Both the position numbers and the translations under genes were made by a program. The notes below the pieces were generated by a model that saw nothing but the letters and a program-made list of their open reading frames with translations, searched no databases and was not told the origin of the DNA. A stretch of DNA of 38,933 nucleotides from a virus. Below, one piece after another: positions 1,620-37,132 of the stretch. Numbering within the stretch: the stretch's first letter is position 1; each line of letters opens with the position of its first letter. Where the stretch lies: positions 1-38,933 of the IMG/VR virus record IMGVR_UViG_3300021399_000041. The stretch is one strand, 5' to 3'.

Positions 1620-1657
1620 CTATATATTACTAATTATTCTGCTTTCGCCCCCTCGAT
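1620..1657 (-). promoter_or_regulatory. Late-gene bipartite repeat, copy E (variant: CATCGAGGGGGCGAAA-N13-GTAATATATAG)
   Basis: Plus strand has ttcgccccctcgat at 1644-1657 and ctatatattac at 1620-1630, 47 nt upstream of the ATG at 1596. It overlaps the last codons (DDIEGAKAE) of the upstream ORF. Confidence 0.55.
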
Positions 1658-1924
1658 GTCGTCAGCCAGTACCATTTCCAAAGCGTCCATGAAGCGCGGC
1701 TGGCAGAAGTTCGTAGCGGCTACTTTCATTATTTGCACTTCTTTTTCGTCGTACTCCACGGCTCCCTCTGACTTGTAAATCTTTTCTGCCAGCACTTTGG
1801 CGGCTATGCCGGTAAGATTGTTATAGATAGAATCTGCGAAAGATTCTCTTACGTCGCCAGTCACTTGCTTTTTGTTTGCTATACCGTCCGGCATAGAAAA
1901 CTTTTGAAAATTGATTTTCTTCAT
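1634..1924 (-). CDS. Hypothetical protein (96 aa) between two fibre genes
   Basis: ORF tightly packed between 1944..6719 and 211..1596; no recognisable motif. Confidence 0.6.
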   Translation of the reverse strand: MKKINFQKFSMPDGIANKKQVTGDVRESFADSIYNNLTGIAAKVLAEKIYKSEGAVEYDEKEVQIMKVAATNFCQPRFMDALEMVLADDIEGAKAE

Positions 1925-1943
1925 AATTCGTTATTTTAATTGT

Positions 1944-4900
1944 TTATCTAATACTTCCCTGCTTATAAAGCCAGTATATTTCTTCGTAGCCGTCTGTTAT
2001 CTTACATTTGCATTCCATGTAACAGAATGAATTTTGCCCAATACCAAACGAAACGCTGCTGCCGCTTTCTGTTTCTTTCAGCGCACCAGTAAACGACATA
2101 GTATAACTGCTTCTATTTACAACTAACAGCGTGTTACCTATCAGCATTCTACATTCGTCTTTTTGTTGCTCATTGTATTTTGTTGCTGTGTAGCTATCCA
2201 TATACGGCATTGCCACGTCTATTCTTTGCCCCACGTTGCTGGCTATCTCTACAAACTGGCCACACTTCAGCACGTCTAAGTAAACGCCAAAGTCGGTATT
2301 AATTGTGTAAGCGGTCACGTTACTGGCGTTAATAATCAGCTTCGCCTTATACATAAAGCCCTTAATGGTAATGTCGTCGAAAATACCGTTTTTCGCTGTC
2401 ACTACGTCTGCCCAAATCTGCTGCACGTTCAGCAAAGACATGTTAATATAGCCATTAGACGCTACCAAAGTCTTTTGGCCGCTGTTTGTCTGCACTACAA
2501 ACTTGTTAGTCGTTATAACTATCTTTTCGTTTGTTATGTCGATACCAGTAGCAAGCTGGCCGCAGCGTTCCATTATTTCCTGCACTGACGGGCAAACGCC
2601 GCCCATAACTACACCAACAGCCCACACGTCCCAGCGGCCTTGCACGCAGTTAATGCCGATAGTGTGCGTGTCTACACCGCTATTGTTAGCCATTAGGCCA
2701 GTGGCTATCTGACGGGTAGCGTAATACTTTCGCCAGCCGTTACCCAAATCAGTAAACGCCGCCGTAGCTGTGTCTACCGCGCTAACGTTTTCGTCACCAC
2801 CACCAAAGCAAAGACGCTTTCTGTTGTTGCCCTCTTGTACCTCGTAGCCGTTCACGCAGCGACATATAACAAACCATGTAGTAACCTTTCCCACCAGCGC
2901 GCTATAATTGTTTCCGGCTGTGAATGTTATTTGCCAGTTCTGCGCCGTGTCATGGTCTACTTGCACAAATTCGCCAAATATCGGGTCTGCGTGCTGGTCT
3001 ACTTCTTCAGTACAATAGTCGTCGTCTATGTTCGCGTCGATGGCGCGCGGATTCAGTATGTAGTTTTTCCAAAGCAGCTGGTCGTCGGCTCCCGGCATCC
3101 ACGCCGTAGCATCTTCGCCGCGCTCTATCTTATACCAGTTTACTACTACGCCGTAGCTTCGTGTACCGCCGGAATTTGTGCCACCCCGGTAGTGCATATA
3201 AGACATAATGTTATATTCTGCTGTTCTGTCAGCAGTAAACGTTACGCTTTTGGTCTGTGCGCTGGTAGACACTATTTCTATATACCCCTTTGTTATCCAG
3301 TCGCCTACGGCCTGCGCATTTCCTGCGTTTACGTCAGCCTGCACCGCCCACCGCCAAACATAACAGCGTAGTGACATGTTATTATTATATGCGCCAGCTG
3401 TCAGCATACCGTTTGCGCTGAAAGTGTACTGCTGTCCGGCTGTCAGCCTCAGCGTTCGCATAGCGAAGCCGTAAAGCGTCGATGTCTCATTAATCAGCGA
3501 AGACGCTAACAAGTTACGCCCGCCTTGATTATCCAGCACTTTGTTAATTTTTGCGCTGATGGTGTCGGCTGTCTGTGTCAGCTGTGTGCCAGTGGCGTAG
3601 TCGTTTTCTATAGTCGTCACACGGCTGCTTATACTTCCAGCCATTTGTGAAATGGTGCTGACACTTGTATTAAGACTGGCTATGTCTCTGTCGTTGTCGT
3701 CTACCGCGTTACCTAACTGGCTTATTTGTGAAGTGTGACTGCTGACGGTTGAAGTAAGGCCGTTGGCTGTTACTTCCAAAGCTGCCACCCGGTCTGTTAC
3801 ACTGGTCAAGCTGCCACCCAAACTATTAATAGAAGACGTGTGGCTGCTGACGGTAGCACTAATTCCGTTTACCGTCGTTTCCAGTGTAGTGGTTCTGTCG
3901 CCTAAGTCGCTTAATGTCTCTGTGTGTTCGCTGACGGTAGCACTAATTCCGCTAACGGTCTGCGTCAGCGTAGCTATAGCCGTGCTGTTGCCGCTGGCCG
4001 TGCTGCTTACTGAAGACAGACTGCTTTCTATTTGCCCGGCTCTGATTTGTAGCGCGCTTATAGAAGACGTGTGGCCGTCTACGGTGTCGCTTATATCCTC
4101 TACGCTGGCAGTAATGCTTTCTGCTGTCGTTTCCAGTGTTCCTATGCGCGTGCTGTTGCCGCTGGCTGTAGATTCCACGGCGGTAACTCTGGCCGTTATA
4201 CTGGTCGCTGTTGTTTCCAGTGTTCCTACGCGGGTAGTCAGCCCGGAAAGGTCGTCTTCGATGTCTGACACGCTGGCCGTAATATTTGTAGCCGTCGTTT
4301 CCAAAGTGCCTACACGGGTAGCTATGCCGTCGGCTTTCGTGTCTACTGCTGTCACACTGGCTTCTATGGCCGTCGCTCTGACTTGCAGCGCGCCTATGGC
4401 TGTGCTGTTGCTGCTGGCTGTAGATTCCACGGCGGTAACGCGCGAAGTAATGCTTTCAGCGGTTACTTCCAAAGTACCTACGCGCGTGGCTATGCCGTCA
4501 GCCTTAGTGTCTACCGCCGTCACACTGGCTTCTATGGCAGTGGCGCGTACTTGTAGCGCGCCTATGGCCGTGCTGTTGCTGCTGGCGGTAGTTTCAACAG
4601 CAGACACGCGCGCTGTGATACTTTCGGCTGTCACCTCCAAAGCACCTACGCGCGTCGTGTTGCTGTCTACTTTGTTTTCCACGCGCTGCACTTCCAGCAA
4701 AATGTGTTCTTTTGTCTGTTCTATCCTGCTTTCGTAGTACGTGTATTCGTTCAGCGTCAGCATTACGTCGTGAATCAGCATAACGCCGTTAGTGGCTATA
4801 GTGAAGTTACCCGTGCCACTCCAGTAGCCCGTAGCCTCAACGTGTATATATTCATTGTCAGCTGTCAAAGCCTCGCTGTACGACAAAGCAGTGAATGTGT

Positions 4901-6719
4901 CGTAGCCCGTCGTAGTCTCTCCGGCTATGCTAATAGTCAGGGTTCCGGCTTCCAGCACTTTCACATACATAGACACGTACACTGGCACGGCCTGCTTTTT
5001 GCTGTTCACCGTCTTTATTTCGGGTGTCTTCGCGTAATCAGCGGCCAGCTGCACCAGTTGGCTGTTAGCGATACGCGCCACACCCAGCCCGCCGTCTGTA
5101 GTCCAGCTTGTGCCATTTCCCAGCTTGTTAGCCAGCGGCGACTTATTAGCCCATACATACTTAGCACCCACTTTGAAGTAGCGCGTGCTGGCGTTACCCT
5201 GCCAACCGTTCAAGTCAGTGGCAAAGCTGCCATTTGTCAGATAGTTGTCTTTGTCGGTAGCTGTGCGCACCGTCTCGCTTATGATGCTGGTAATTTTTCC
5301 GTCTATCACTTGCAGCAGACTACGCCCGTCATTCAGATAGAAGTCGCCAGTAAATACGTTTCCGTGTGGGCTTATGCGCGTCTTCTGTCTGCCAGTCAGC
5401 CTATAGCTATTAATGCCTTGATACTGCGTAATGGCTGGCGCGTCTGTGCCTACGGCTGACAGCATAATAGCGTGCTGGCGTTCTGTGTCTGTACGGTTTC
5501 CCAGCTGCACTACATGGTCGCCTGCTGCTGGCGCGTCGCTGTTGGCCTCGCAGTCGCTCTTTGACACGTCTATATAGTCTTCGCCTACTTCAGTAACCAG
5601 TCGCCACCAGTAGCGATTTTGCACATTTTGGTACACTCCGGCCTTAATATTGAATGTCTGACAGCGTGCTTGGTCGCCAGCGCGCCAGTAGTTCATAGTG
5701 GCTGTAGTGCCGTCGTCGTTCTTAATGGTACACCGCCAAAAAGTGCCTTTGTCTTCCACGCCCGTAATAACGCTGCCAGCACCGCTTAACAGCAGATTAC
5801 CACCTACATAACTAAGACGGCGTATTTCCAATTCATCAAAGATGGCCTTAACTCTTACCAGCAGTTTGTCACACTCTATTACCCACATGCCGCCAGCATC
5901 TTGGTACGCACCTATTCCAGTACCTAACATGCCGCCAGCCGTCCAGTCGGGTGTCTTCAGCCACGCAAAGATAGCACCGCCCAGCAGCTTCAGCAGATAC
6001 CGGGTTTCGTCTTCAGTGTCTTTGCGTAGAAATGTGCCTATCATTTTGGCTACGGTCATAATGGCCGTGTCGTCAGCCTCAACAGCAGCACCGCTTTGGA
6101 TAGCGCGCACTATCTTAGCGTCACCCAGCCACATGCCACGCACCAGCGTAATAAAGTCCTCAAAGGTTATCTTTCCTTTGGCTACGTCGTCATGCAGCTT
6201 TGATAAGAATTTCTTTTCAGCGCGCTTTTCCGATTCCCCTATTTTGCCGTCGATTTTCTGCCAGTCTGTACTATCAGCCGTCAAGTTCTTAGCCAGTGTA
6301 GCTAAGTCTGCCGTCTTCGCGTGGTCTGTTTTGCCTGCTCTGTCAGCAGTCTGCGCGTGTATGGCCTCGTTAGCACTGGCCGCGTGGTCTGCTTCATCTG
6401 CACGCTGTGCGTTCACGGCTACGTCTGCGTGCTTCGCGCGTTCAGCTTCAGCAGCATTTGCGGCTATGTCGGCGTTCTGCGCGTGTGTGGCTTCGTCTGC
6501 TAAGTTGGCACGTTCTGCCAGCCTTGCTTTTCCGGCTTCTTCTGCATACTTCGCGGTTCCGGCTTCTTCTGCATACTGCACACTGCCAGCTGGCGTGTCG
6601 CTGTTGCTGCTGCTGCCTACGTTGTTTATAATGGTAGTGCTGCCGCCGCCAGTTCCTTTGAAGTTCTCGCTACGGCCTTTACCGGGAATAATATACGATA
6701 TTACTTTTACGTCTTTCAT
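1944..6719 (-). CDS. Large tail fibre / host-recognition protein (1591 aa)
   Basis: ATGA overlap with the upstream gene at 6716-6719. N-terminal Ala-rich HAxxAD-type repeats and central ~56-aa imperfect tandem repeats (TRVGxLExTAESITxRV...). Two jelly-roll/CBM-like stretches (NGSFATDLNGWQGN, GGRNLLASSLINET). Position is downstream of the tape measure. Confidence 0.8.
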   Translation of the reverse strand: MKDVKVISYIIPGKGRSENFKGTGGGSTTIINNVGSSSNSDTPAGSVQYAEEAGTAKYAEEAGKARLAERANLADEATHAQNADIAANAAEAERAKHADVAVNAQRADEADHAASANEAIHAQTADRAGKTDHAKTADLATLAKNLTADSTDWQKIDGKIGESEKRAEKKFLSKLHDDVAKGKITFEDFITLVRGMWLGDAKIVRAIQSGAAVEADDTAIMTVAKMIGTFLRKDTEDETRYLLKLLGGAIFAWLKTPDWTAGGMLGTGIGAYQDAGGMWVIECDKLLVRVKAIFDELEIRRLSYVGGNLLLSGAGSVITGVEDKGTFWRCTIKNDDGTTATMNYWRAGDQARCQTFNIKAGVYQNVQNRYWWRLVTEVGEDYIDVSKSDCEANSDAPAAGDHVVQLGNRTDTERQHAIMLSAVGTDAPAITQYQGINSYRLTGRQKTRISPHGNVFTGDFYLNDGRSLLQVIDGKITSIISETVRTATDKDNYLTNGSFATDLNGWQGNASTRYFKVGAKYVWANKSPLANKLGNGTSWTTDGGLGVARIANSQLVQLAADYAKTPEIKTVNSKKQAVPVYVSMYVKVLEAGTLTISIAGETTTGYDTFTALSYSEALTADNEYIHVEATGYWSGTGNFTIATNGVMLIHDVMLTLNEYTYYESRIEQTKEHILLEVQRVENKVDSNTTRVGALEVTAESITARVSAVETTASSNSTAIGALQVRATAIEASVTAVDTKADGIATRVGTLEVTAESITSRVTAVESTASSNSTAIGALQVRATAIEASVTAVDTKADGIATRVGTLETTATNITASVSDIEDDLSGLTTRVGTLETTATSITARVTAVESTASGNSTRIGTLETTAESITASVEDISDTVDGHTSSISALQIRAGQIESSLSSVSSTASGNSTAIATLTQTVSGISATVSEHTETLSDLGDRTTTLETTVNGISATVSSHTSSINSLGGSLTSVTDRVAALEVTANGLTSTVSSHTSQISQLGNAVDDNDRDIASLNTSVSTISQMAGSISSRVTTIENDYATGTQLTQTADTISAKINKVLDNQGGRNLLASSLINETSTLYGFAMRTLRLTAGQQYTFSANGMLTAGAYNNNMSLRCYVWRWAVQADVNAGNAQAVGDWITKGYIEIVSTSAQTKSVTFTADRTAEYNIMSYMHYRGGTNSGGTRSYGVVVNWYKIERGEDATAWMPGADDQLLWKNYILNPRAIDANIDDDYCTEEVDQHADPIFGEFVQVDHDTAQNWQITFTAGNNYSALVGKVTTWFVICRCVNGYEVQEGNNRKRLCFGGGDENVSAVDTATAAFTDLGNGWRKYYATRQIATGLMANNSGVDTHTIGINCVQGRWDVWAVGVVMGGVCPSVQEIMERCGQLATGIDITNEKIVITTNKFVVQTNSGQKTLVASNGYINMSLLNVQQIWADVVTAKNGIFDDITIKGFMYKAKLIINASNVTAYTINTDFGVYLDVLKCGQFVEIASNVGQRIDVAMPYMDSYTATKYNEQQKDECRMLIGNTLLVVNRSSYTMSFTGALKETESGSSVSFGIGQNSFCYMECKCKITDGYEEIYWLYKQGSIR
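4299..4667. repeat. Imperfect 168-bp (56-codon) tandem repeat, about 2.2 copies, inside the fibre gene; more degenerate copies extend from about 3760 to 4680
   Basis: ttccaaagtgcctacacgggtagctatgccgtc... at 4299 recurs at 4467 and partially at 4635. The protein repeat is ATRVGTLEVTAESITxRVxAVExTASSNSTAIGALQVRATAIEASVTAVDTKADGI. Confidence 0.8.
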
Positions 6720-9022: not shown

Positions 9023-9030
9023 AAAATGTC

Positions 9031-9070
9031 TTTATATTACCGCCTGCCAGCGGCTCTTTGCCCCCTCGAT
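9031..9070 (-). promoter_or_regulatory. Late-gene bipartite repeat, copy A (ATCGAGGGGGCAAA-N16-GTAATATAAA)
   Basis: Plus strand has tttgccccctcgat at 9057-9070, abutting the tape measure stop codon, and tttatattac at 9031-9040. The ATG of the next gene is at 9022. Confidence 0.6.
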
Positions 9071-12000
9071 TACGGTTTCTTAGCTTGTTTCTTGTAGTTC
9101 TCCATAAGCAGATATAACGTACTGCCACGCAGCGCGCCTATAATGCGCTTACCGTCAAAGCTGCCACGTAGCATGTCGCTGTTTATGGCGTTCCACAAAC
9201 GTTTCTGCTGACTGCCGTTTAATATCATTTCGCCAGCATTGACCCGCGCCAGCTGCAAATCATTAATGCTGCTGCCGCCCTGCACCACGCCACCGCCTGC
9301 AAACTTAGGAATAGCAGCCATTAAGCCCAGCACGGCACTGATAGCAGCGGCCACGGCCAGCAGATTAGCCGGGAATGGTAATTTAGCGGCACTGGCTCCG
9401 GCTGAAGACGCTGCACTGGCAGTATTTGCGGCTACGTCTGTAGTAGCCTTTGCCACGGTTGCCGCACCTGCTGCTTGGTCGCTGGCTATAGCCTGCGTGT
9501 TGGCGGCTACCTTTTGCGCGGCTGTCGTCTGTGTCATTGCAGCTTCAGCGGCCTGCGCTTTCTGTAAAGTCTCGCTGGCTTCAGTCCATGCGTTCACCGC
9601 GTCAATAATACGCAAAAAGCCGTCTACCGTCTGCGTCATGGAGTTCCAAATGGCGGCTATCTTTTCCCACGGGCTTGCGTCTTCGTCGGAAAGTGTATCT
9701 GCTAAACCAGTCCACGCGCTTACGATTGTGTTTGTGCTGCTGGCTAAGTCTTTTACGCTATTCCATTCAGTCTTCGCTAAGTCCTTTTGCAGTGCCTTAA
9801 CGTCTTCGCGTACCTTTGCCAGCTTCAAAGCCTCATCCAAAGACGTGACTTTCTTCATTTGGTCTTCTATCTCTGCCGTCATGTCGCTGGCCAAAGACTT
9901 CATTTCTGCCAGCCGCTTCTTAGCTTGTTCAAGCTGGTATTCTATTTCAGTCTTCGCTATTTCGTCGGCTGTCAGCTTGTAGTCAAATGTTTTGTCACGT
10001 CCGGGCTGTTTGGCCAGTTCTGCGTTCATGGCTCCCACTTCCAAAGCCTTACGGTATTTCTGTATGACTTGTATAGTGTGCTTCTGTTCGTCTGTCAGCC
10101 CGTCGATGGCGGCGGCTTGGTCTATGAAGCGCGTCTGTGCTGCCAGTACCGCTTTGGCGTAGCTTTCTTCTGTCAGCACGCCGTTAGCTTTCTTTCTGTC
10201 AGCTTCGGCTATGGTTTCCTTATAGCGCGCTTCAGCGTCTGCCAGTTCGCGCGCGGCTTTGGCTGACTTGTCGGCTTTTACTGCTGCTTCCAGCTTCTTA
10301 GCAAATGCAGATTCGCGCGCGGCTACGTCGTCGCTACTGCGAAGCCTTAACAGCGTTTCTTCATTCAGCCGGGAAAGCTGCTGCTGGTATTCGTTTTCCG
10401 TAACCAGTTCCAGCCGCTTCTTTTCGTCAAGTTCACGCAGACTGCGCGTATAGTCTTCTTGCGCTTTCTGTAGGTCGGTTTTTTGTTTGTTGCCGCCACC
10501 GTCGCCGCCAGTACCACCGCCACCGCCACCAGTGCCCCCGGTTCCACTGGTAACTACTACGGCGTTCATTTCCTTTGTCTTATCCTCGATATAGTTGTTT
10601 AGCGTCGTCACGTTGGCTTGCAGCTTTGCCCACTTAGCCTTAAACGCTCTGTAGCCGCTTGGGGATGCTCCAGCCTCGCGTATAGCGTCGTTTTCAGACA
10701 TACCCATAACGCGCTCGTTAAAGTATGCAGCAGACACACCTTTGCTGGCGTTCTTTTCAAAGTCTGACAGCTGCATTTCCGCGTCTGCCAGCTTCGTACT
10801 GGCGGCTTGTATCTGTGCTGCCAGCTTCAGCTTTTTGCAGTAAGCGTCCAGCGCGTTAGTATTGTCGTTTATCAGTTTACCCTCTTGTGTTAGGCTGGCG
10901 TGATAGTCAGGCACTATTTTCTGTAAGTCCGCTATAGCCTGCTGGCGGTTCTTGATGGCCTGCGTATTGTCGTGTACTATCTTAGACAGCGCGGCTATTT
11001 TGGCGCGTTGCTCGTTTTCGCTATTTGTAGCTTCTTTCTCTATGTCCTTGATAACGTCACGCGCTCCGGCGGCTTCGCGTATCAGTGAAGAAATTTTGCT
11101 GATAACTTCCACTATTACGGTCATAAGCAGCATAGGCCAAACGGTACTCCATATAGTCTTCATGGCTGCTGCTGCTGTCGTAGCGGCTGCTTTTATCTTT
11201 ATCATGGCCAGCTGCCACCCGGTAGCACTCTTAACGGCTGCTGCCTGCGCGTCCGCTGCTTTAGCGGCTTCAGTGGCTTTCGTTACGGCCAGTTCGTTGG
11301 CTTTCAGCTGCCGCTTCTTTGCTTCCAGCTGTACTTCGATGGCTAAACGCTGGTCTGCACTGGCCTTTTCCAGCTGTGCTTCCAGTGACTTGATTTGTTT
11401 TCGCAGTGTCAGCCCGGCGCGCTCTAAGGTATTTACCTTTGCGTGTGCTGCCTGCGCTTGTGCTGCCATTGTCATAAACGCAGTACCGCCAGCAGCCTGC
11501 CACTGCCGGAAATACTGGATAACCTTAACGCCTGCGAATATGGCCAGTATCTTAGCGGCCAGTGTGCCTAAATTCTCTGTGAAATATCGTATGAATCCAG
11601 TAAGTGCTTCGATAGGTGCAACAAATAGATTTTCGCCGCCTTGAAAGATTTTGATTTGAAACGCTTCCCATGCAGACGACAAAGAAGCCAGCGCGTTTTC
11701 CATGCGCCCGCTGCCTTGCTCAAACATTCTTTCTGTCTCGCCGTAGCTGCTTGCCAGCGTGTCGTTAAGTTCTATAAACTTTTCGTAGTTGTTAATCAAA
11801 GCAGCTGCACCGCTGAAAGCACGCCGCCCGAATACGTCTGCTAAGTCTTGGTTATTCTTACCTATTCCGCTTTCGTATAGCTTCTTTAATGTGCCTGCCA
11901 GCCCGTCTACTTCTACGGTCTGCTGGTTGATTTCCAGCCCGTATTTCTTCAGTGCTGCTGCTCCTTTGTCGCTTTCAGTAGAAAGCCCCATAAAGACTTG

Positions 12001-13242: not shown

Positions 13243-13278
13243 AAAAAAGAAAAAAGCCAGCCAGTTACCCGGCTGGCT
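13243..13278 (-). terminator. Rho-independent terminator/attenuator after the major tail protein gene
   Basis: Minus-sense AGCCAGCC-gggtaact-GGCTGGCT followed by TTTTTCTTTTTT (plus strand A-tract at 13243-13254), immediately before the ATG at 13242. Confidence 0.65.
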
Positions 13279-13318
13279 CCCTAACCTAAAACTAACTACT
13301 GATTATGTCAAACAACCG

Positions 13319-14228: not shown

Positions 14229-14268
14229 TTTATATTACTGGCGTGTGCTTTACTTTTGCCCCCTCGAT
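14229..14268 (-). promoter_or_regulatory. Late-gene bipartite repeat, copy B (CATCGAGGGGGCAAAA-N16-GTAATATAAA)
   Basis: Plus strand has tttgccccctcgat at 14255-14268, 1 nt after the upstream stop, and tttatattac at 14229-14238. ATG at 14220. Confidence 0.6.
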
Positions 14269-14269
14269 G

Positions 14270-14800
14270 TTATTTTGACAGCCTGCGCGTGGCTGCTTTC
14301 TCTATTCCCTCGATAACGTAGCCCAAAGCTGTGCCAGTGTCTTGTTCGCGCGTCTCACTCCAGTAGCGTAACGATGGCATTTCGCCACGATTTAAGCCGC
14401 TGTGTGTCTCACGCTTTTGGGTTCCTAAGTCTACTAAGTGGCTGTGCGCACCCTCTGGCCGTTTGAAGCCTACCAGCGCACCAGTACGGCTTTTCTTCAG
14501 CCTCACCACGAAAGACTTCAGTAAATTGCCGGGCTGTCTGCCAGCTTCACGGCGTTTGTGCGCTTTGTCTGTCTTCAGTCCTTTACGCAGACGCTTACGG
14601 CCTTGTCTGACTAAGTAAGTACCGCCAGCGCGTAGCCCGGCTTGCACGGCTTTGTCTCGCTCGATTTCTGCCAGCTGTTGCAAAGCAGCGTCTATGTGTT
14701 CGATGCCGCTATACTCCACGCTGATGCCGTCGGCTACCTTGCCACCAGTGCCAGCGTTACCGCTTCCGGGCTTACCAAAATATTCTGTCAGCCTACCCAT
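14270..14800 (-). CDS. HK97 gp10-family head-tail joining protein
   Basis: 176 aa; GIEHIDAALQQLAEIERDKAVQAGLRAGGTYLVRQGRKRL resembles the HK97 gp10 family; position after the head closure gene. Confidence 0.65.
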   Translation of the reverse strand: MGRLTEYFGKPGSGNAGTGGKVADGISVEYSGIEHIDAALQQLAEIERDKAVQAGLRAGGTYLVRQGRKRLRKGLKTDKAHKRREAGRQPGNLLKSFVVRLKKSRTGALVGFKRPEGAHSHLVDLGTQKRETHSGLNRGEMPSLRYWSETREQDTGTALGYVIEGIEKAATRRLSK

Positions 14801-15429: not shown

Positions 15430-15450
15430 GATAGTGTCGTTTTAAGTGAA

Positions 15451-15484
15451 GCGGCTGGCCAGCCTCAACGTGCCAGCCAGCCGC
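15451..15484 (-). terminator. GC-rich hairpin after the major capsid gene (possible attenuator)
   Basis: gcggctggc ... gccagccgc forms a 9-bp stem. It contains the palindrome ggctggccagcc and one AGCCTCAAC copy in the loop. There is no clear U-tract. Confidence 0.35.
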
Positions 15485-15512
15485 CTGCTGATGATAGAAA
15501 GAATTCAAAGCC

Positions 15513-17505: not shown

Positions 17506-17546
17506 TTTATAATTACGTCACTTATTCTGCATTTTGCCCCCTCGAT
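17506..17546 (-). promoter_or_regulatory. Late-gene bipartite repeat, copy C (CATCGAGGGGGCAAAA-N16-GTAATTATAAA)
   Basis: Plus strand has tttgccccctcgat at 17533-17546, inside the last codons of the portal gene (EASRGQNAE), and tttataattac at 17506-17516. ATG at 17492. Confidence 0.6.
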
Positions 17547-18811
17547 GCTTCAGTTTGTTTGTCGCCGTTTATCTTTGCGCTGTCAGCGGGTGCTACATTG
17601 CAGCTGACAAACAACTTGTTTCCACCGGGTAGCGGCTTACGGCCTTTACGCAGTCTTACTTCATTTGGTGTCATGCCGCCAGCCTGCACCATTTTAGTGA
17701 AGTAGTCGGCTTCTGCCAGTACGTCGCTTTGGTAGTAGTCTTCCAAATTGAATTTAATTTTGTAGTCTGCTGCCACGCTTTGCGGTATCAGCTTAACCTT
17801 AAATTCGTTTTCTATCTTGATAAGCAAAGGTGCTAACGTGTCAGTCATATACACCGTTTGGCTGTTTTCGCTGGCCTTATAGTTCGTACTGGTCTGTGCA
17901 AATACTTTGTCGGGATGCACACCAAAGAAGCGGCAAATTTCCAGCACGTTAAACTTCTTACTATCCAGCAGCTGTAAGTCAGCCGGGGAAAGTGCCAGCT
18001 GATTGAAGCGCATAACGCCCGGTAACTGGAAAATACGCTTTCCGCTGCCTAACTCTCTTTCTACGCGCTCGCTGACAGCTTCCAGCTGGTCGTCTTGCAG
18101 CTGGCCAAAGCCCTGCGTTACGGTATTGTCGCCGGAAATGAAGCCGCGCGTAGTGCTGCCGGGCTTAAAGCTGTCTATTTGCAGTTCGTCGGTCTTCATG
18201 CCGATTTGCAGCACCTTACCAGCGTAGGCTATAGTGCTGCTGCCAGTATAGCCGCCGTCTAACGAGAAATTACGCAAATGTATGATTTCGTCTGCGTAAT
18301 ATTCGCCGTGTACGTGGTTGTAGTCGTCATTAACGGCGTAGGTGTTCGTCAGTGCGTCGTAAGTCACTCTGTCGCTTTGCAGCAGCAGCAGCTTCTTAAC
18401 TTCGCCACGCTCATAGACTGGCAGAATGTAGGCGTTACCGCGAAGCAGCACGTTAAGCACGGCGTTTTTCATAAAGTCGAAAGCCGTAAGCACGTCGTTA
18501 GGCTTTTCGCTCAAAAGATACTGAAGCGGGTGCTTTTCTTCTACACTGAATAGCTGGTAGCTTTCGCCGTCAGCCTCAACGGTCTTACGTCTTAGCACAT
18601 TCATACCCAGCCCGGCTACACTGCTGCTTACGATGTCGGCACACCTAAACACGGTAGCTATACGCACGGCTGTAGTTTCGCTTACACCCTCGTTATTGCC
18701 AAAGATGGCTGATAAGTCGCCCGTAGTGCTGGCGATTACGTTAGGGTCTGCGCCACGGCTGTAACTTCGCCCGGCGTTTTTCTTCTTTCTGAATCTGTCA
18801 AATATACCCAT
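17522..18811 (-). CDS. Portal protein, HK97 family
   Basis: 429 aa between the terminase and protease genes; the C-terminal GGMTPNEVRLRKGRKPLPGGNKLFV motif is typical of HK97-type portals. Confidence 0.9.
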   Translation of the reverse strand: MGIFDRFRKKKNAGRSYSRGADPNVIASTTGDLSAIFGNNEGVSETTAVRIATVFRCADIVSSSVAGLGMNVLRRKTVEADGESYQLFSVEEKHPLQYLLSEKPNDVLTAFDFMKNAVLNVLLRGNAYILPVYERGEVKKLLLLQSDRVTYDALTNTYAVNDDYNHVHGEYYADEIIHLRNFSLDGGYTGSSTIAYAGKVLQIGMKTDELQIDSFKPGSTTRGFISGDNTVTQGFGQLQDDQLEAVSERVERELGSGKRIFQLPGVMRFNQLALSPADLQLLDSKKFNVLEICRFFGVHPDKVFAQTSTNYKASENSQTVYMTDTLAPLLIKIENEFKVKLIPQSVAADYKIKFNLEDYYQSDVLAEADYFTKMVQAGGMTPNEVRLRKGRKPLPGGNKLFVSCNVAPADSAKINGDKQTEASRGQNAE

Positions 18812-18825: not shown

Positions 18826-18866
18826 TTTATTATTACTGGTTCCATTGCTTCTTTTGCCCCCTCGAT
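18826..18866 (-). promoter_or_regulatory. Late-gene bipartite repeat, copy D (CATCGAGGGGGCAAAA-N16-GTAATAATAAA)
   Basis: Plus strand has tttgccccctcgat at 18853-18866, 3 nt after the terminase stop, and tttattattac at 18826-18836. ATG at 18811. Confidence 0.6.
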
Positions 18867-18869
18867 GTC

Positions 18870-21058: not shown

Positions 21059-21062
21059 GTCC

Positions 21063-21399: not shown

Positions 21400-21822
21400 T
21401 TACTTTACGGTTCGTTTCAGTACGTTAGCCGGGTATGTCTTCACTGCGCCCTCATTCTCGCAGTCTTCAAACATACTGGCTACTTCGTCAGCTATAACGT
21501 CGCCAGCTTCCGGCTTGTCATAATCTCCGGCTTTCATGTGAAAGTCACGTAGCGCGTAGGCTGCACGCCCAAAGTTCTTATAGACAGCTTCCAGCCGTTT
21601 CTTCTGTCCTTTGTCAGTGCTGAATAACTCTATAAATTCAGGTGCTAACGGCGCGTCTATAACGTCGTTCTTAGGGTCTGCCACGCGCAAAAACGTGTGA
21701 ATAAGATAGCGCACTAATGCGTAGTCACTACTGAAGCCGCTACGCTTTGCCACGGCTTTAAGACGTTCTGCGTCTGCTTTCAGTAGGCGTGTGCCTACTT
21801 TTACAAATTCGATTTCTTTCAT
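21400..21822 (-). CDS. Hypothetical protein, first gene of the late transcription unit
   Basis: ORF with ATG at 21822 (MKEIEF), 28 nt downstream of a TAnnTTTG box. Confidence 0.6.
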   Translation of the reverse strand: MKEIEFVKVGTRLLKADAERLKAVAKRSGFSSDYALVRYLIHTFLRVADPKNDVIDAPLAPEFIELFSTDKGQKKRLEAVYKNFGRAAYALRDFHMKAGDYDKPEAGDVIADEVASMFEDCENEGAVKTYPANVLKRTVK

Positions 21823-21845: not shown

Positions 21846-21876
21846 GGCACAAAGGTACTAAGATTTTCACAAAGTT
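21846..21876 (-). promoter_or_regulatory. Bacteroidota-type promoter (CTTTG-N12-TACCTTTG) for the late unit
   Basis: Minus-sense ACTTTGTGAAAATCTTAGTACCTTTGTGC. TACCTTTG fits the TAnnTTTG -7 consensus. The 15-mer TTAGTACCTTTGTGC is identical to 32598-32612. Confidence 0.55.
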
Positions 21877-21893
21877 AGTTCATTTGTGCTAAC

Positions 21894-21917
21894 AAAAAAG
21901 CGCGCCCGCTGGCGCGC
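21894..21917 (-). terminator. Rho-independent terminator ending the early/replication unit
   Basis: Minus-sense GCGCGCC-AGCG-GGCGCGC followed by TTTTTT. Confidence 0.8.
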
Positions 21918-22019
21918 CAAAGCCTATGTTTAACTAAAAATCCTTGTGTATTACCGCCTATCTTCGCAGACTGGCAAAGCTAATTCAAGTGCTATGAAAA
22001 CACACTACAAAGGTAGTAA

Positions 22020-22361: not shown

Positions 22362-22415
22362 AAGTATATACTTTTATTTCGTTTGTAATTTCTTCGCGCC
22401 TGCATAAGTATATAC

Positions 22416-22766
22416 TTACGCCTGCGCACACTTAAACCAGTTGGCCGCGCCTATGCGGTTGCCGGGCTGAAAGCGGCCACGGCCTAACTTGTTATTCCTT
22501 ATCCGCGCCCACGTCAAAGACTGATGGCGTAGCTTATGTAGCCAGCCAGCATCTTTCTGAAGTCCTAACTGCTTTGCCTTACGCTGTACGCTGCACCGTG
22601 ACACGCCCAGCAGCGCGGCCAGTTCGTCGTTAGTCGTAGTGGCATACCAGCGGCGCAAATCTGCTAACATTTGGCCAGTCCATACACGCACCAGTGTAAT
22701 GCAGCCAGTGTGACGTTCATAAAGTCTGCCAGTGGCAGTGTCGTAATATCTCTGTTTCATAGCCAT
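22416..22766 (-). CDS. HTH DNA-binding protein (candidate transcription regulator)
   Basis: 116 aa; TNDELAALLGVSRCSVQRKAKQLGL is a classic helix-turn-helix (sigma region-4-like). Confidence 0.6.
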   Translation of the reverse strand: MAMKQRYYDTATGRLYERHTGCITLVRVWTGQMLADLRRWYATTTNDELAALLGVSRCSVQRKAKQLGLQKDAGWLHKLRHQSLTWARIRNNKLGRGRFQPGNRIGAANWFKCAQA

Positions 22767-30009: not shown

Positions 30010-30028
30010 GTATTAATTTAATTAAAAG

Positions 30029-30301: not shown

Positions 30302-30307
30302 TTTTAT

Positions 30308-31516: not shown

Positions 31517-31524
31517 TCCGGCTT
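31502..31524. terminator. Weak hairpin between the convergent int and 31530..31835 genes
   Basis: aagccgg-gcaaatagt-ccggctt, 7-bp stem overlapping the int stop codon. Confidence 0.3.
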
Positions 31525-31529
31525 TCTCT

Positions 31530-31835: not shown

Positions 31836-31837
31836 TT

Positions 31838-32579: not shown

Positions 32580-32597
32580 GTGTTCTTTCTATCAGTT

Positions 32598-32628
32598 AGC
32601 ACAAAGGTACTAATTTTCCGGCAAAGTA
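32598..32628 (-). promoter_or_regulatory. Bacteroidota-type promoter (CTTTG-N12-TACCTTTG), near-duplicate of the late-unit promoter
   Basis: Minus-sense ACTTTGCCGGAAAATTAGTACCTTTGTGC. Same spacing and identical 15-mer as 21846-21876. Confidence 0.55.
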
Positions 32629-32738
32629 TATACTTTCAGCCTCAACTTTTTGCAGATAGGTATATACAAGAAAACTGGCCTACATTCACATGCAAGCCAG
32701 CGGCGAGAAAAGAAATAAATCTACTCTTTTTTATTAAA

Positions 32739-34466: not shown

Positions 34467-34471
34467 AACTG

Positions 34472-34930: not shown

Positions 34931-34934
34931 TTTC

Positions 34935-35537: not shown

Positions 35538-35742
35538 ATTCTATAACTTTAAGTGGTTCTTTCTCTTTGTCGTTCAGCGCGGCAAAGTAATAGTACCCGT
35601 CACGCTTTCTTATTATCTTCGTGTAATGTGGCAGTTCTGCTTCAGTGCCGCGTATTGTCTTCAGCAACTTGTAGCCCTCTGCTAACAGCAGACGCGCTTC
35701 TATTGCGCCGTCTTCCACATAGTACACTTGCGCTGCCAGCAT
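35467..35742 (-). CDS. Possible small ORF (91 aa) directly after the RT; coding status uncertain
   Basis: The ATG at 35742 (MLAAQVYYVEDG...) lies 35 nt after the RT stop. The ORF overlaps the next gene by 71 nt. The longer version to 35886 would overlap the RT. Confidence 0.3.
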   Translation of the reverse strand: MLAAQVYYVEDGAIEARLLLAEGYKLLKTIRGTEAELPHYTKIIRKRDGYYYFAALNDKEKEPLKVIEYDLQTRRSQQPPAGSADGSHARR

Positions 35743-35776
35743 CTCTTTTCCTGCGTGCAACTGACTGGCCGTTATC

Positions 35777-37132
35777 TCAAAATGGCAAATCAGCAGCGGC
35801 TTGTAAAGCAGCTGGCCGCAGTAGGCGCGCTTTCCTAAATACTGGTGCTTTAGTATCTTTTGCCCCCTCGATGTCGATAAGTCCATATAGCGGATATTGT
35901 GCTTTATGCTCCGGGCTTCTGAAGTCCGGCGCGGTTGTTAGTATCTTTTTCAGTTTGTTGTGCCATGCCTTTTGTCTGTGCCTGCGCTTCACCTCTGCAC
36001 GGCCAGCAGCCAGCATGTCGAAAAATTCCGGGTATTTCCGTTTCCAGTAGTTTATAAGGTTCGCCACGTCCAAATCTCGCAGACTGCCGCTAACGCCAGC
36101 CCAGCTTTGCATAGCCTTTTCCGGGTTCCAGCCCTCACGTATGCGCGTCTTCATCATTGCTTCCACTCTCCGGCGGCTCACACGTCGAAGCCACGCGCGC
36201 CTGCTGTTCACCATTGCGCCCAAACACTCAAAGCGTTCTTTTTCCACATTCAGCACGCGCCAGTTAGCTTTCAGCGTTTGCTTCATATCATCCTCAACAC
36301 TGGCACGTAGCACGCGCATAGCCGTATGCAGATAGTTTACGTCTTTGTGTATCATATATTTGTCGTCACAAAAGCGGTAGTAGCGGCGTATCTTATAGGC
36401 TAACAAAAGCTGCCAGTCTGTCGCTGCGTGGTAAACATGACCTAACACGTTGCTACTTGGCAGTCCTAAAGCCATGCCTACGCTACCCATGCGGCTAAGA
36501 TTCACTTCAGACAGCCAAAGCAGCCATTTGTCTTTGATATGGTCTGCCAGTATCTTCAGCAGCACTTCGTGGTTTGTTGTAGGGTAGAATTTGGCCGTGT
36601 CGCCAGTACCTACGAATAAGTCCGGCCTATGCCTCACTTTGCGGATAATCTCACGCCGCATGTCATGCTGGCCTTTGCCCTTGATGCTGCCGTAGCTGTT
36701 GGCTGGTATGATATGCTTCTTTTCCATGAAGACGTACTGAAGACAGTCGAAATACAAAATGTCTACTATCAATTCTTCCGGCCTGCTGGCATAGATTACA
36801 CGGTGCTTATTGTTTTCTTTCTTGTCGAAGACAATAAACGCGCGCGGCTTCCATACCATATAGCGAAGCTGGTAGTAAAGCCGCGTAACGTTTTCGTCTA
36901 AGTGTCCTAACCAGTCATGCCATGCGGCGCGTATCTCGTTAGTCCATTCCTTTTGTTTTTCGGGTCTGTTCAGATATTCCACTATTAGCAGAATTCTTTC
37001 GCGCGTCAGCATCCGCTTTCGCACATTGCCCACTTTCTTTGTCATTTTAATGCGTTTGCTAATTGGCGACACCATTTCTTCGTTCGGACTTATTCCCGTG
37101 CCGTCCTGCCAGTCATGCCAGCCTACTGCCAC
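35777..37132 (-). CDS. DGR-type reverse transcriptase with atypical motifs
   Basis: RT motifs in order: NKHRVIYASRPEELIVD (1/2), NSYGSIKGKGQHD (2a), GTGDTAKFYPTTNH (A/3), GLPSSNVLGHVYH (4), YYRFCDDKYMI (C/5), FECLGAMV (6) and QSWAGVSGS (DGR thumb motif ASWxGH-like). Immediately 3' of the TR. Start is uncertain (GTG 37132, ATG 37075 or ATG 37045). Confidence 0.85.
   Translation of the reverse strand: MAVGWHDWQDGTGISPNEEMVSPISKRIKMTKKVGNVRKRMLTRERILLIVEYLNRPEKQKEWTNEIRAAWHDWLGHLDENVTRLYYQLRYMVWKPRAFIVFDKKENNKHRVIYASRPEELIVDILYFDCLQYVFMEKKHIIPANSYGSIKGKGQHDMRREIIRKVRHRPDLFVGTGDTAKFYPTTNHEVLLKILADHIKDKWLLWLSEVNLSRMGSVGMALGLPSSNVLGHVYHAATDWQLLLAYKIRRYYRFCDDKYMIHKDVNYLHTAMRVLRASVEDDMKQTLKANWRVLNVEKERFECLGAMVNSRRAWLRRVSRRRVEAMMKTRIREGWNPEKAMQSWAGVSGSLRDLDVANLINYWKRKYPEFFDMLAAGRAEVKRRHRQKAWHNKLKKILTTAPDFRSPEHKAQYPLYGLIDIEGAKDTKAPVFRKARLLRPAALQAAADLPF
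35834..35872 (-). promoter_or_regulatory. Late-gene bipartite repeat, copy F, inside the 3' end of the RT gene (CATCGAGGGGGCAAAA-N16-GTATTTAGG)
   Basis: Plus strand has tttgccccctcgat at 35859-35872, encoding IDIEGAK of the RT. The distal half is a weaker match (cctaaatac at 35834-35842). Confidence 0.45.

Follow-up and report, generated by a model that had tools for sequence, protein, structure and literature searches.

A two-part sequence unit at the late-gene junctions of a temperate Bacteroidales phage, a candidate class of phage-specific late promoters

To our knowledge, almost nothing is known about how Bacteroidales phages time the expression of their late genes. The Bacteroidales are some of the most plentiful bacteria of the gut and rumen, and their primary sigma factor has an unusual promoter code. 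The window analysed here, the whole 38,933-nucleotide stretch of IMG/VR record IMGVR_UViG_3300021399_000041, closes into a circular genome of 38,826 bp, with its ends overlapping by 107 bp. It belongs to a temperate siphophage of the HK97-like type whose hosts are Bacteroidales of the gut or rumen (WIN below; the relatives compared with it carry L-numbers, such as L109 and L272), and its coding fraction exceeds 90%. The late region extends over about 28 kb and is co-directional, with its genes on the - strand and with internal terminators. Six copies of a two-part sequence unit are found in this genome, all within the late region and all at module boundaries, and they do not follow the promoter code of the Bacteroidales primary sigma factor. 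What, then, do these units do, and what reads them?

The first part of the unit, box 1, contains the 14-mer TTTGCCCCCTCGAT (as read on the + strand), which occurs exactly at 9057, 14255, 17533, 18853 and 35859 and with one mismatch (TTCGCC...) at 1644. When up to two mismatches are allowed, 6 matches are found in the genome as against 0.12 expected from shuffles, and 0 of 100 shuffles reach 6, confirming the original prediction of five exact copies and one variant in a single orientation. That orientation is the strand of the genes. The six units are as follows.

1621..1660, - strand: unit A (variant), within the 96-aa gene at its 3' end, ahead of the start of the 461-aa gene (ATG 1596); box 1 gacATCGAGGGGGCGAA (14-mer 1644-1657), spacer 13 nt, box 2 GTAATATATAGA (as GTAATATATA(GA) at 1621-1630)
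9031..9070, - strand: unit B, sharing sequence with the tape-measure stop codon and preceding the 768-aa gene (ATG 9022); 14-mer 9057-9070, box 2 GTAATATAAA at 9031-9040
14229..14271, - strand: unit C, after the stop of the 176-aa neck gene (14270) and before the tail terminator/completion ATG (14220); 14-mer 14255-14268, box 2 GTAATATAAA at 14229-14238
17506..17549, - strand: unit D, within the last portal codons, upstream of the protease ATG (17492); 14-mer 17533-17546, box 2 GTAATTATAAA at 17506-17516
18826..18869, - strand: unit E, after the TerL stop codon (18870) and before the ATG of the portal gene (18811); box 1 gacATCGAGGGGGCAAA (14-mer 18853-18866), spacer 18837-18852, box 2 GTAATAATAAA at 18826-18836
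35831..35875, - strand: unit F, within the DGR (diversity-generating retroelement) reverse-transcriptase (RT) gene at its 3' end, heading the lysis-side block; 14-mer 35859-35872, degenerate box 2 GTATTTAGGAAA at 35831-35842

On the coding strand the unit reads (gac)A(T/C)CGAGGGGGCA(A/G)A, 16 nt, GTAAT(A)ATAAA, 8-24 nt, ATG. Box 1 is 17-18 nt long and asymmetric, with no dyad symmetry found in it (GACAYCGAGGGGGCARAA), and no inverted repeats are reported at the unit sites. The motif had been written as CATCGAGGGGGCAAAA, which is too strict in two places, as the leading C and the fourth A are not present in all copies and the 9057 copy is gtaATCGAGGGGGCAAAg. The predicted spacing of 16 nt in five copies and 13 nt at 1644 stands, with the qualification that the box 2 of the 35859 copy, at the same 16-nt distance, is degenerate. 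The distance from the end of the 14-mer to the ATG, measured at 34, 34, 40, 41 and 47 nt in five of the six copies and at 116 nt (to the ATG at 35742) for the RT-internal copy, is also as predicted. Box 2 by itself is not over-represented (4 matches vs 3.06 expected); the non-random part of box 2 is its association with box 1. A pattern of GCAAA, 17 nt and a TAWWWW hexamer is found at all six sites, and even in unit A, despite its 13-nt spacer, the TATATA hexamer lies 17 nt past GCGAA. The gene labels given earlier held for the portal, protease and tail terminator/completion genes and failed to find PHROGs support for the 461-aa 'fibre' and the 768-aa 'tail protein'. No unit lies directly ahead of the capsid, major tail or terS gene in WIN.

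Comparison with relatives shows which parts of the unit are maintained. Where portal identity is 78-86%, the unit is retained at the same junctions, and the TerL/portal unit (E) is also present in L109, L117-L124, L146 and L267-L272. Across 20 distinct instances from five lineages, identity is 93% in box 1, 74-77% in box 2 and 33-46% in the 16-nt spacer. The same pattern of conserved boxes and unconserved spacer is seen among orthologous sites and among different sites, and the spacers of separate copies are unrelated (33% identity). The box is also translated in more than one frame, as had been noted for WIN, and this now extends to orthologous portal proteins, whose C-termini read ASRGQN in WIN and L272 vs DTEGAK in L120 and L123; DIEGAK is the reading of the box in the RT and the 96-aa protein. 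Every copy in the WIN group and in L272 has T at position 2 of the box, as against C in nearly all copies of L119, L122, L271 and L146, with some fibre-site copies deviating. The T to C switch includes the RT-internal copy, at the cost of an Ile to Thr change, and unit F is kept in L054, L019 and L140-L144 with a T/C state that matches the other copies of each genome. Selection acts on the nucleic acid and not on the protein, because orthologous portal C-termini read the box in two frames, the unit is kept at the same junctions, and the T/C position switches together in almost all copies of a genome.

More distant lineages carry other upstream halves at the same junctions (GTTGAGGTTG, AGCCGACT), with (C/T)AAA-N16-(G)TAAT..TAAA retained. 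L394 and L395 have three copies of (C)GTTGAGGTTGCAAAAA-N14-GTAWWWATAAA, L396 has AGCCGACTAAAA-N13/14-TAATWATAAA, and L131, a Bacteroides mediterraneensis prophage, has GTGCYACCAAAAWACG-N10-GTAARGTAAA, in each case at the same junctions. The (C/T)AAA-N16-(G)TAAT spacing is common to WIN, L394 and L396. L146, a single Logan contig, has a spacer of 6 nt and not 16 nt in two of its three units, and all three lie 9-10 nt nearer the ATG. The cultured relative Bacteroides phage Bacuni_F1 has CCAGTAATAGTAGAGA just upstream of its portal gene and no TAnnTTTG there; this portal gene needs a promoter of its own because the preceding genes are divergently oriented.

The explanation that we favour, with moderate confidence, is that the units are phage-specific late promoters of sigma-70-like geometry, read via a phage-encoded factor. 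Each would consist of an upstream 'address' of 8-10 nt, here A(T/C)CGAGGGG, fused to a -35-like GCAAA and followed, after a 17-nt gap, by a -10-like AT-rich hexamer (TAATAT, TAATTA, TAATAA, TATATA or TATTTA) within box 2. With initiation a few nucleotides past box 2, the leader would measure about 4-17 nt in transcripts of the portal, protease-capsid, tail-terminator/major-tail, distal-tail and 461-aa gene blocks, and about 90 nt in that of the block downstream of the RT gene. We infer promoter function from the anatomy of the units alone, and the transcription start position and the identity of the factor are likewise predictions. The boxes are conserved and the spacer is not, and all the relatives examined have the unit at these late-gene junctions. 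Two conserved elements separated by 16-18 bp of unconserved spacer, the arrangement typical of sigma-70-type promoters, are found in WIN, L394 and L396, with L146 as the exception. A phage-encoded factor would be needed because the host sigma motif TTTG/TAnnTTTG is absent from the units; neither TAnnTTTG nor a -33 TTTG is present on the coding strand of any of the six, in agreement with the earlier statement that the motif is unlike the host-type promoter. Junction conservation, the box/spacer pattern and the sigma-70 geometry all support, but do not prove, the original suggestion of late promoters or activator sites with short leaders.

The surroundings of the units include the following features.

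22416..22766, - strand: 116-aa helix-turn-helix (HTH) protein gene (LGVSRxSVQRKAKQLGL), second candidate regulator
21899..21918, - strand: intrinsic terminator, 8-bp GC-rich stem then T run, at the end of the early region and immediately ahead of the late host-type promoter
21846..21880, - strand: promoter-like site of the host type (Bacteroidetes sigma-A), TTTG...TAccTTTG, preceding the 140-aa/HNH/terminase genes
21400..21822, - strand: 140-aa protein gene, the first to follow the late host-type promoter, with HNH-TerS-TerL immediately downstream
13251..13282, - strand: intrinsic terminator after the major tail gene
32674..32701, - strand: intrinsic terminator, end of the lysis-side block that begins after unit F

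TAnnTTTG itself is present in WIN near 21851-21858 and 32600-32610, and a second clear canonical-type promoter lies near 32598-32640. Unit D is followed by the protease and capsid genes and then by a hairpin 3' of the capsid gene (about 15440-15490), unit C by the tail-terminator and major-tail genes and then by the strong terminator at 13282-13251, and unit F by the lysis-side block and its terminator (32701-32674). This layout fits transcription units, and for units D and C the order is that of putative promoter, abundant genes and attenuator.

The leading candidate for the factor that reads box 1 is the 140-aa protein, the N-terminus of which fits a ribbon-helix-helix (RHH) template. Activator-dependent promoters share an upstream site, as the units do, and the gene for this candidate heads the packaging operon under the host-type promoter. 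Made from that promoter, the protein would switch on the downstream modules in a feed-forward manner. The position of the gene before HNH-TerS is kept in most lineages that have it (L133 is an exception), and the family comprises about 72 clusters, usually as the first gene of the packaging operon and currently without annotation. A predicted beta-strand, FVKVGTRLL, is invariant in all lineages with the G-rich box and different in those with another box 1, and identity to the WIN protein tracks the T/C type (83% in L272, 62-71% in other lineages, 53% in L146), a co-variation that is confounded by phylogeny and linkage. Weak matches to RHH families were obtained for 5 of 48 family members. No significant match to the 140-aa protein was found in Pfam, NCBIfam or the PDB, and the AlphaFold model is unreliable (pLDDT 45). 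Among RHH proteins, activators are less common than repressors or accessory DNA-binding proteins. The 116-aa HTH protein has generic HTH fold matches only (all E > 0.1), and no sigma-like domain was detected among the WIN proteins.

A broader idea, which we hold only tentatively, is that HK97-like temperate Bacteroidales phages share a modular late code, made up of a constant core, an exchangeable address and a co-evolving phage reader. The core, (C/T)AAA-N17-TAATAT, is similar to a sigma-70 promoter of proteobacteria and has no place in the host's own TTTG/TAnnTTTG system. Joined to it would be an 8-10-nt address that can be exchanged and that the phage RHH protein reads with its beta-strand; this protein might redirect host RNA polymerase or serve as a specificity subunit of an unconventional kind. 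Co-evolution of address and reader would give each phage lineage a private late programme, and some lineages may add parts, such as the free-standing alpha-CTD-like protein in L394. If the units are late promoters, Bacteroides and Prevotella genetics would gain a promoter/factor pair that is defined, portable and probably orthogonal; late operons and transcription units could be annotated by their sequence signature in thousands of genomes of uncultured Bacteroidales phages; and studies of how promoter specificity changes would have a natural series of co-evolving address/reader variants. The units also flag the conserved, unannotated 140-aa family as worth testing.

Several findings count against the promoter interpretation. 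The 6-nt spacers of L146 do not fit a -35/-10 arrangement, the capsid and major tail genes lack units of their own, and just 1.3 kb separates the portal unit from the protease unit. Leaders as short as those predicted are also unusual; in B. thetaiotaomicron only about 3.7% of 5' UTRs are below 10 nt (PMC7366714).

In a rival reading, the unit would work in RNA, as an unstructured cis-element of the late polycistronic mRNA recognised by a phage or host protein, with a role in endonucleolytic processing, in loading an antitermination or processivity factor, or in boosting translation of the next, uncoupled gene. We judge this rather unlikely. Every copy lies on the coding strand, where transcription from the host-type promoter upstream would include it, box 1 frequently adjoins the upstream stop codon, and the L146 spacer is easier to reconcile with an RNA-binding reader than with the geometry of RNA polymerase. 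The unit regions are unstructured or less structured than shuffles, as expected of single-stranded sites or ribosome landing pads, and box 2 is A/U-rich and near the start codon, which suits the Shine-Dalgarno-independent initiation of Bacteroidetes. Conserved secondary structure is absent: the six sites show no shared or better-than-shuffle folding (z -0.7 to +1.5), and no Rfam family matches them at gathering thresholds. The unit is not a general translation signal, because the leaders of the capsid and major tail genes, which encode the most abundant late proteins, are AT-rich and lack box 1. A distance of 34-47 nt from box 1 to the start codon is too far for a ribosome-binding-site role. 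Complementarity to what we take to be the anti-Shine-Dalgarno sequence at the 16S 3' end is at most 4-5 nt, with none in the L396 and L131 variants. Finally, the fixed (C/T)AAA-N16-(G)TAAT spacing in three deep lineages is what one would expect of DNA recognition by RNA polymerase.

It is improbable that the unit is no promoter and that box 1 instead serves as the DNA target of a transcription-modifying phage protein, for example as a loading site for a Q-like or RfaH/ops-like antiterminator on polymerases that started at the host-type promoter near 21860, or as a roadblock or timing operator. At 17-18 nt the asymmetric, lineage-specific box exceeds a normal -35 element, and its copies follow at intervals of 1.3-7.4 kb within a single co-directional unit of 28 kb, which has internal terminators and is headed by a single host-type promoter with a terminator upstream. 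The spacing change in L146 moves box 1 relative to everything downstream. However, known antiterminator loading sites are located at or just after the promoter and not at each module boundary, units D and C are 1-2 kb upstream of terminators and do not adjoin them, and no NusG, RfaH or Q-like protein was detected among the WIN proteins. A pure binding site would also leave the constant core and the fixed-spacing box 2 unexplained.

Very improbable is a function apart from expression, with the boxes as module-boundary linkers that promote homologous exchange, or as another DNA signal such as strand-specific nick sites. The copies do lie exactly at the borders between packaging, portal, head, tail, distal tail, fibre-DGR and lysis modules, and several share a longer unit, a C-terminal ...EGAK(A/T)E* peptide plus CAGAATAA. 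The relatives are indeed mosaic, such that the similarity rank of L120 and L123 to WIN flips between neighbouring genes (74/82% for the 176-aa and 84/72% for the 134-aa protein, respectively), but such flips occur at almost every gene boundary with no preference for boxes. Homologous exchange would be poorly served by 18 nt and hindered by lineage-specific box variants, and it has no need for a second AT-rich box at fixed spacing or for a fixed orientation to start codons. A mobile mini-repeat (MITE/REP-like), which the original prediction had named as a finding that would overturn it, is excluded because all relatives have the unit at orthologous positions and the spacers show no relationship.

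Read as late promoters, the units can be compared with several known systems. Activator-dependent late promoters include those of Mu C (Plys/PI/PP/Pmom) and of P2/P4 Ogr/Delta (PP/PO/PV/PF), and the RinA/ArpU/LtrC-type late activators of Gram-positive phages are encoded just upstream of terS. As in these systems, WIN has a few near-identical sites of phage-specific sequence, in one orientation before late-gene blocks, each with a conserved upstream site and a -10-like element, and a small candidate regulator gene directly upstream of HNH-terS-terL. The differences are that box 1 is asymmetric and not a dyad, that no unit precedes terS, that the -10-like element mismatches the Bacteroidetes primary sigma consensus, that no homology to C, Ogr, RinA or ArpU was detected for the candidate factor, and that the upstream half is exchanged between lineages while the constant core is kept. 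The late promoters of T4 consist of TATAAATA at -10, with no upstream element, and use the phage sigma gp55 together with gp33 and the sliding clamp. They share with the units an AT-rich, TATAAA-like -10 element unlike the host consensus, short leaders (predicted in WIN) and a restriction to late genes; in WIN, however, the 17-18-nt upstream box is the best-conserved part, and homologues of gp55 and gp33 were not detected.

The canonical Bacteroidetes sigma-ABfr promoter, with TTTG at -33 and TAnnTTTG at -7 (PMC7366714), is also bipartite and located upstream of genes, and WIN has two clear examples of it, but neither element is found in the units. The TGTT -10 of the non-canonical B. thetaiotaomicron motif PM2 (PMC12596196) likewise does not match them.

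The original prediction had also drawn an analogy with the start-associated sequences (SAS) of cluster K mycobacteriophages, which are 13-bp GGGATAGGAGCCC-like repeats with a Shine-Dalgarno core, 3-7 bp from the start codon, present in the non-structural arm in many copies per genome, with 93 sites identified in total (PMC3203893). SAS/ESAS and the units are alike as short, asymmetric, phage-specific repeats in one orientation at gene starts, sometimes overlapped by the upstream stop codon, and in the sub-lineage-specific variants of an associated element. The analogy does not hold further: box 1 is 34-47 nt and box 2 8-24 nt from the start, which is not a ribosome-binding-site position, AGGAG is absent from that position, and the six copies are found only at late structural, DGR and lysis blocks.

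Another Bacteroidetes system, RNA-guided transcription by dCas12f-sigmaE, uses an address of about 20 nt that fixes a downstream start, and canonical motifs are unneeded (PMC12259090). The units resemble it in having an address, a start site (predicted here) at a fixed distance and no canonical promoter motifs. WIN differs in encoding no Cas12f-like protein and in having, beyond the six sites, no further copy of the 14-mer (at up to two mismatches) as a possible guide; unlike dCas12f-sigmaE targets, its units carry conserved -35-like and -10-like elements.

The long ORFs of the region all lie on the minus strand, and the recurrent element of the window is a 14-mer, TTTGCCCCCTCGAT on the plus strand, that is found exactly at 9057, 14255, 17533, 18853 and 35859 and with one mismatch at 1644. 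When up to two mismatches are allowed there are six matches against 0.12 expected, and six were reached in no shuffle. In coding-strand orientation the unit consists of (gac)ATCGAGGGGGCAAA(a), a 16-nt spacer, (cca)GTAAT(A)ATAAA, 8-24 nt and an ATG; the conserved parts are called here box 1 (G-rich, the G-box) and box 2 (AT-rich). The end of the 14-mer is 34, 34, 40, 41 or 47 nt from the start codon. The 1644 copy has a 13-nt spacer, and the 35859 copy lies within the 3' end of the reverse-transcriptase (RT) gene, with a degenerate box 2 (GTATTTAGGAAA) and the next start (35742) 116 nt away. Box 2 by itself is not enriched (4 matches, 3.06 expected); its non-random feature is its placement after box 1. 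The original prediction had described this six-copy bipartite repeat correctly, save for minor details of the flanking bases. The positions of box 2 are as follows.

18826-18836, minus strand: box 2, with box 1 at 18853
17506-17516, minus strand: box 2, with box 1 at 17533
14229-14238, minus strand: box 2, with box 1 at 14255
9031-9040, minus strand: box 2, with box 1 at 9057
1621-1630, minus strand: box 2, with box 1 at 1644
35831-35842, minus strand: box 2, with box 1 at 35859

Bases 1-107 and 38827-38933 form a 100% identical terminal direct repeat of 107 bp, which makes the window a circularly closed assembly, its genome being 38,826 bp. It belongs to a temperate HK97-like siphophage, with genes identified by Pfam and PHROGs or by synteny with annotated relatives: a tyrosine integrase with Bacteroidetes-type Arm-DNA-bind_5 and SAM_5 domains, a cI-like HTH protein, SSB, VRR-NUC, HNH, TerS, TerL, portal, S78 protease, capsid, tail terminator, tape measure and amidase. 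Relatives with 52-60% TerL identity come from Bacteroides mediterraneensis, a Prevotella MAG and a Bacteroides MAG. The nearest cultured phage is Bacteroides phage Bacuni_F1 (TerL identity 47%), and a near-identity search with 25 kb against INPHARED phages found no match. The phage carries a complete diversity-generating retroelement (DGR) with an intervening 93-aa ORF: TR and VR are 85% identical and differ at coding-strand A positions, and the target gene (about 502 aa) begins at ATG 184, crosses the sequence origin and ends at 37502. The features that matter for transcription and for the DGR are these.

21918-21899, minus strand: strong terminator at the end of the early region
about 21846-21880: canonical Bacteroidetes promoter, TTTG...TAccTTTG, heading the 140-aa, HNH, TerS and TerL genes
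21400-21822: gene for a 140-aa protein, the first after the host-type promoter
22416-22766: gene for a 116-aa protein with a confidently modelled HTH core
13282-13251, coding strand: terminator after the major tail gene
32701-32674, coding strand: terminator after the lysis-side block
after the capsid gene: hairpin without a T run
37258-37356: TR of the DGR
37518-37616: VR of the DGR
35777..37132: RT gene of the DGR

Twenty-six G-box loci were gathered from IMG/VR, ENA and Logan, with the portal, RT, 116-aa and 140-aa proteins as handles. By lineage, portal identity is 99% in the window's own group, 86% in L272, 82% in L119 and L271, 80% in L122 and 78% in L146 (L numbers denote relatives' loci or contigs). 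Wherever the contigs reach them, the unit occupies identical junctions in these 26 loci, namely TerL/portal, portal/protease, neck/tail terminator, tape measure/768-aa protein, 96-aa/461-aa protein and the inside of the RT 3' end. Among 20 distinct instances, identity is 93% in box 1, 74-77% in box 2, 33-46% in the spacer and 51-57% in the 5' flank, and the pattern is equal for comparisons of orthologous and of different sites. Exact 14- and 15-mer scans (viral with ATCGAGGGGGCAAA and TGAGGTTGCAAAAA, metagenome with GACAYCGAGGGGGCA) gave chance single matches, and among the matches listed only L026 and L074, of the window's own clade, were informative. A gapped-pattern scan of IMG/VR, which used TAWTNNTAAA for box 2 and misses TAATATAAA, found G-box units confined to about 10 contigs of that clade.

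Box 1 is read as ASRGQN in the portals of the window phage and L272, as DTEGAK in the orthologous portals of L120 and L123, and as DIEGAK in the RT and the 96-aa protein. Because orthologues translate it in different frames, selection acts on the nucleic acid, as had been argued from the window alone. The second base of box 1 is T in every copy of the window's group and L272 (the ATC lineages), and the other four (the ACC lineages) have C almost throughout; the fibre-site copy of L145 has AGC. This pattern extends to the RT-internal copy, at the cost of an Ile-to-Thr change. An A/G position near the 3' end of box 1 differs from site to site within one genome. The concerted T/C switch argues for a trans-acting reader whose specificity would differ between lineages.

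In units whose box 1 is translated as part of the upstream ORF, the spacer starts (n)CAGAATAA (1631-1643 and 17517-17532 in the window, and in L119, L142, L145 and L146), and the proteins concerned terminate in EGAK(A/T)E or RGQNAE. The portal/protease and 96-aa/461-aa units are thus alike beyond the two boxes, a hint that a longer unit was duplicated to produce one of them from the other. A partial look-alike, ATCGAGGGCAACA-N8-GTAATACT (20601-20653, minus strand), lies at the TerS 3' end just upstream of the TerL GTG start and encodes ...IEGN...; it is probably a chance or relic resemblance, and L146 does not keep it as a box. For TerS itself (20600-21307), gene calls in relatives are 150-169 aa, mostly 151 aa, with a start near 21055, and the alternative 235-aa GTG ORF overlapping the HNH gene is not favoured by the calls in close relatives.

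In more distant lineages the arrangement is kept and the upstream half is changed. L125, L394 and L395 (portal identity 63%) carry (C)GTTGAGGTTGCAAAAA-N14-GTA(A/T)(A/T)(A/T)ATAAA, exact at three junctions, and L396 (58%) carries AGCCGACTAAAA(C/A)-N13/14-TAAT(T)ATA(T)AAA at two junctions and AGCCGACTTTTTT at a third. A B. mediterraneensis prophage (L131) has GTGC(T/C)ACCAAAA(A/T)ACG three times, twice followed by N10 and GTAA(A/G)GTAAA, and L127 and L128 have a looser pair, ACCAAAA(A/C)AAGGC...TATAAA. The distance from (C/T)AAA to (G)TAAT is 15-16 nt in the window phage, L394 and L396. The element is therefore modular, consisting of a lineage-specific address of 8-10 nt and a constant core. A search of the window for promoters with the constant core only (CAAA-N14-18-GTAWT) gave no excess over the known sites. 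In the cultured Bacuni_F1 (L273, MT635598; 12363-12470), the two genes preceding the portal gene are divergently oriented, so that the portal gene must be served by a promoter of its own; CCAGTAATAGTAGAGA lies 14 nt before the portal ATG, and there is no TAnnTTTG. No multi-copy box 1 was found in this phage. Further upstream of its portal, aACACCGGGTACCATTTT loosely resembles the ACC-type box 1.

On the pattern of the sequence, we favour with moderate confidence the reading that the units are phage-specific late promoters of sigma-70-family geometry. A TA(A/T)(A/T)(A/T)(A/T) hexamer stands 17 nt after GCAAA (GCGAA at 1644) at all six window sites, and even the odd copies fit this rule, with TATATA at 1644 and TATTTA at 35859. 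The G-rich address would then fall at about -38 to -47, where an activator or UP-type contact would be expected, and the predicted starts would give leaders of roughly 4-17 nt. Near-leaderless transcripts had been part of the original prediction, and these lengths agree with it; however, in Bacteroides they would be on the short side: of B. thetaiotaomicron 5' UTRs, only about 3.7% measure less than 10 nt (PMC7366714). The unit at 17533 is followed by the protease and capsid genes and then the hairpin, that at 14255 by the tail-terminator and major-tail genes and then a strong terminator, and that at 35859 by a block closed by the 32701-32674 terminator. The layout looks like serial modules of promoter, abundant product and attenuator, which would restore transcription along the 28-kb late region.

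The exception is L146, a single Logan contig. The G-box is present in its three units (5340-5394, 6640-6681 and 9860-9900), in two of which the spacer measures 6 nt (...GCAGA-ctggca-GTAATAGTAAAA and ...GCAAA-atcaga-ATAATAGTAAAG), and all three lie 9-10 nt nearer the ATG. At the same junction, L119 and L271 show a 9-nt tandem spacer duplication with a co-varying base (actggcaga/actggcag versus actgacaga/actgacag). Displaced by about one turn of the helix, a bound protein could still face the same side of the DNA. The L146 spacing is, as read from the contig, incompatible with a -35/-10 pair, so that in L146 the units would act differently or box 1 would not be -35-proximal. It is mainly because of this exception that substantial weight is kept on other explanations. 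An RNA-level cis-element is unlikely, though the foremost of these, and a protein site that is not a promoter, such as a loading site for an antiterminator, is more doubtful still. A recombination linker is very improbable, being weakened by mosaic flips between lineages that occur at almost every gene boundary and are not specific to the boxes.

Several known elements do not account for the units. The canonical Bacteroidetes promoter has TTTG at -33 and TAnnTTTG at -7 (PMC7366714); as originally predicted, the motif is unlike it, both elements being absent from all units, and two clear examples occur elsewhere in the genome. PM2, a non-canonical B. thetaiotaomicron promoter with TGTT at -10 (PMC12596196), does not match either. 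An antisense promoter, with the TTTG of TTTTGCCCCC as -7 or -33, would give TAnnTTTG from only one of six copies, and the bases concerned fall in the non-conserved spacer. Against a structured RNA, Rfam and tRNA scans gave no match, and the six sites are no more stably folded than shuffled sequences (z -0.7 to +1.5) and have no structure in common. The suggested analogy to the start-associated sequence of cluster K phages is not supported: that element, of the non-structural arm, is 13 bp with a Shine-Dalgarno core and stands 3-7 bp before the start codon (PMC3203893), whereas box 1 in the late region lies 34-47 nt away. A general translation signal is excluded by the capsid and major tail genes, which have AT-rich leaders without box 1, and a mobile mini-repeat, raised earlier as a possible refutation, by unrelated spacers and orthologous positions. 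An IMH-like or priming element of the DGR is rejected because TR and VR lie elsewhere and five copies are unrelated to the DGR, and RNA-guided transcription because the window has no Cas12f-like gene and no separate guide copy.

No phage protein contains a sigma domain, and we infer that the trans factor may be the 140-aa protein, the leading candidate. Its gene precedes HNH-TerS in most lineages where it is found (including L394, L396, L128 and L131; L133 is an exception). The family forms 72 clusters at 50% identity among 1.8 billion proteins, and its conserved part, the N-terminal 70 residues, fits a ribbon-helix-helix (RHH) template of beta-strand, helix, G-F-x-S turn and helix. Five of 48 members show weak matches to NikA-like, RHH_5 or RelB; profile searches of PDB and Pfam with the 140-aa protein gave nothing significant, and its AlphaFold model is unreliable (pLDDT 45). 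The predicted strand, FVKVGTRLL, is invariant in all G-box lineages, with the whole protein down to 51% identity, and is changed in lineages with another address. Compared with the window's protein, that of the other ATC lineage is 83% identical, those of three ACC lineages are 62-71% identical and that of L146 is 53% identical, an ATC/ACC contrast absent from neighbouring proteins. All these observations on the 140-aa protein are confounded by phylogeny. The model of the second candidate, the 116-aa protein, gave generic Foldseek matches only (E > 0.1).

Phage-specific late promoters with a common upstream site are already known as a class. The literature searched yielded no late promoter of a Bacteroidales phage, and what is new is the host group, the departure from the promoter code of the phylum, the modular address-plus-core design with its concerted lineage-specific changes, and the conserved, unannotated candidate reader.

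Other possible regulatory sites were seen. The perfect 12-bp palindrome AAGTATATACTT occurs three times (22362-22373, 22406-22417 and 32624-32635; 0.09 expected): two of them lie on either side of the point where the 116-aa HTH gene stops and the 113-aa gene starts, the third covers the -33 region of the host-type promoter ahead of the 32579 gene, and in L146 the palindrome likewise precedes the homologous genes. Its form is suggestive of an operator bound by a dimeric regulator. An inverted pair, TTTGTGCTAAC / GTTAGCACAAA (21871-21893 and 32595-32617; 23 nt, 87% complementary), is present at the two host-type promoters and may be a common operator. At about 21899-22025 on the minus strand, the 113-aa gene has a -7-like TAccTTTG at its end, after which come about 100 nt of non-coding DNA, the 21918-21899 terminator and the late host-type promoter; this may specify a short non-coding transcript or resemble the lambda pR'-tR' pair, and the terminator-plus-promoter arrangement is kept in L146.

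The gene for the 1591-aa tail protein contains 84-nt (28-aa) tandem repeats of 60-79% mutual identity (3724-4655), and the protein also matches tail, tail-fibre and glycerophosphodiesterase PHROG families. Finally, the early genes of L394 include one for a free-standing 123-aa protein that contains the C-terminal domain of an RNA polymerase alpha subunit (PF03118, E 9.6e-9; 2443-2814, and 811-1182 in L395), of which no homologue is detectable in the window. Phages seldom carry an alpha-CTD, and this one could be relevant to the way in which transcription is redirected by these phages.
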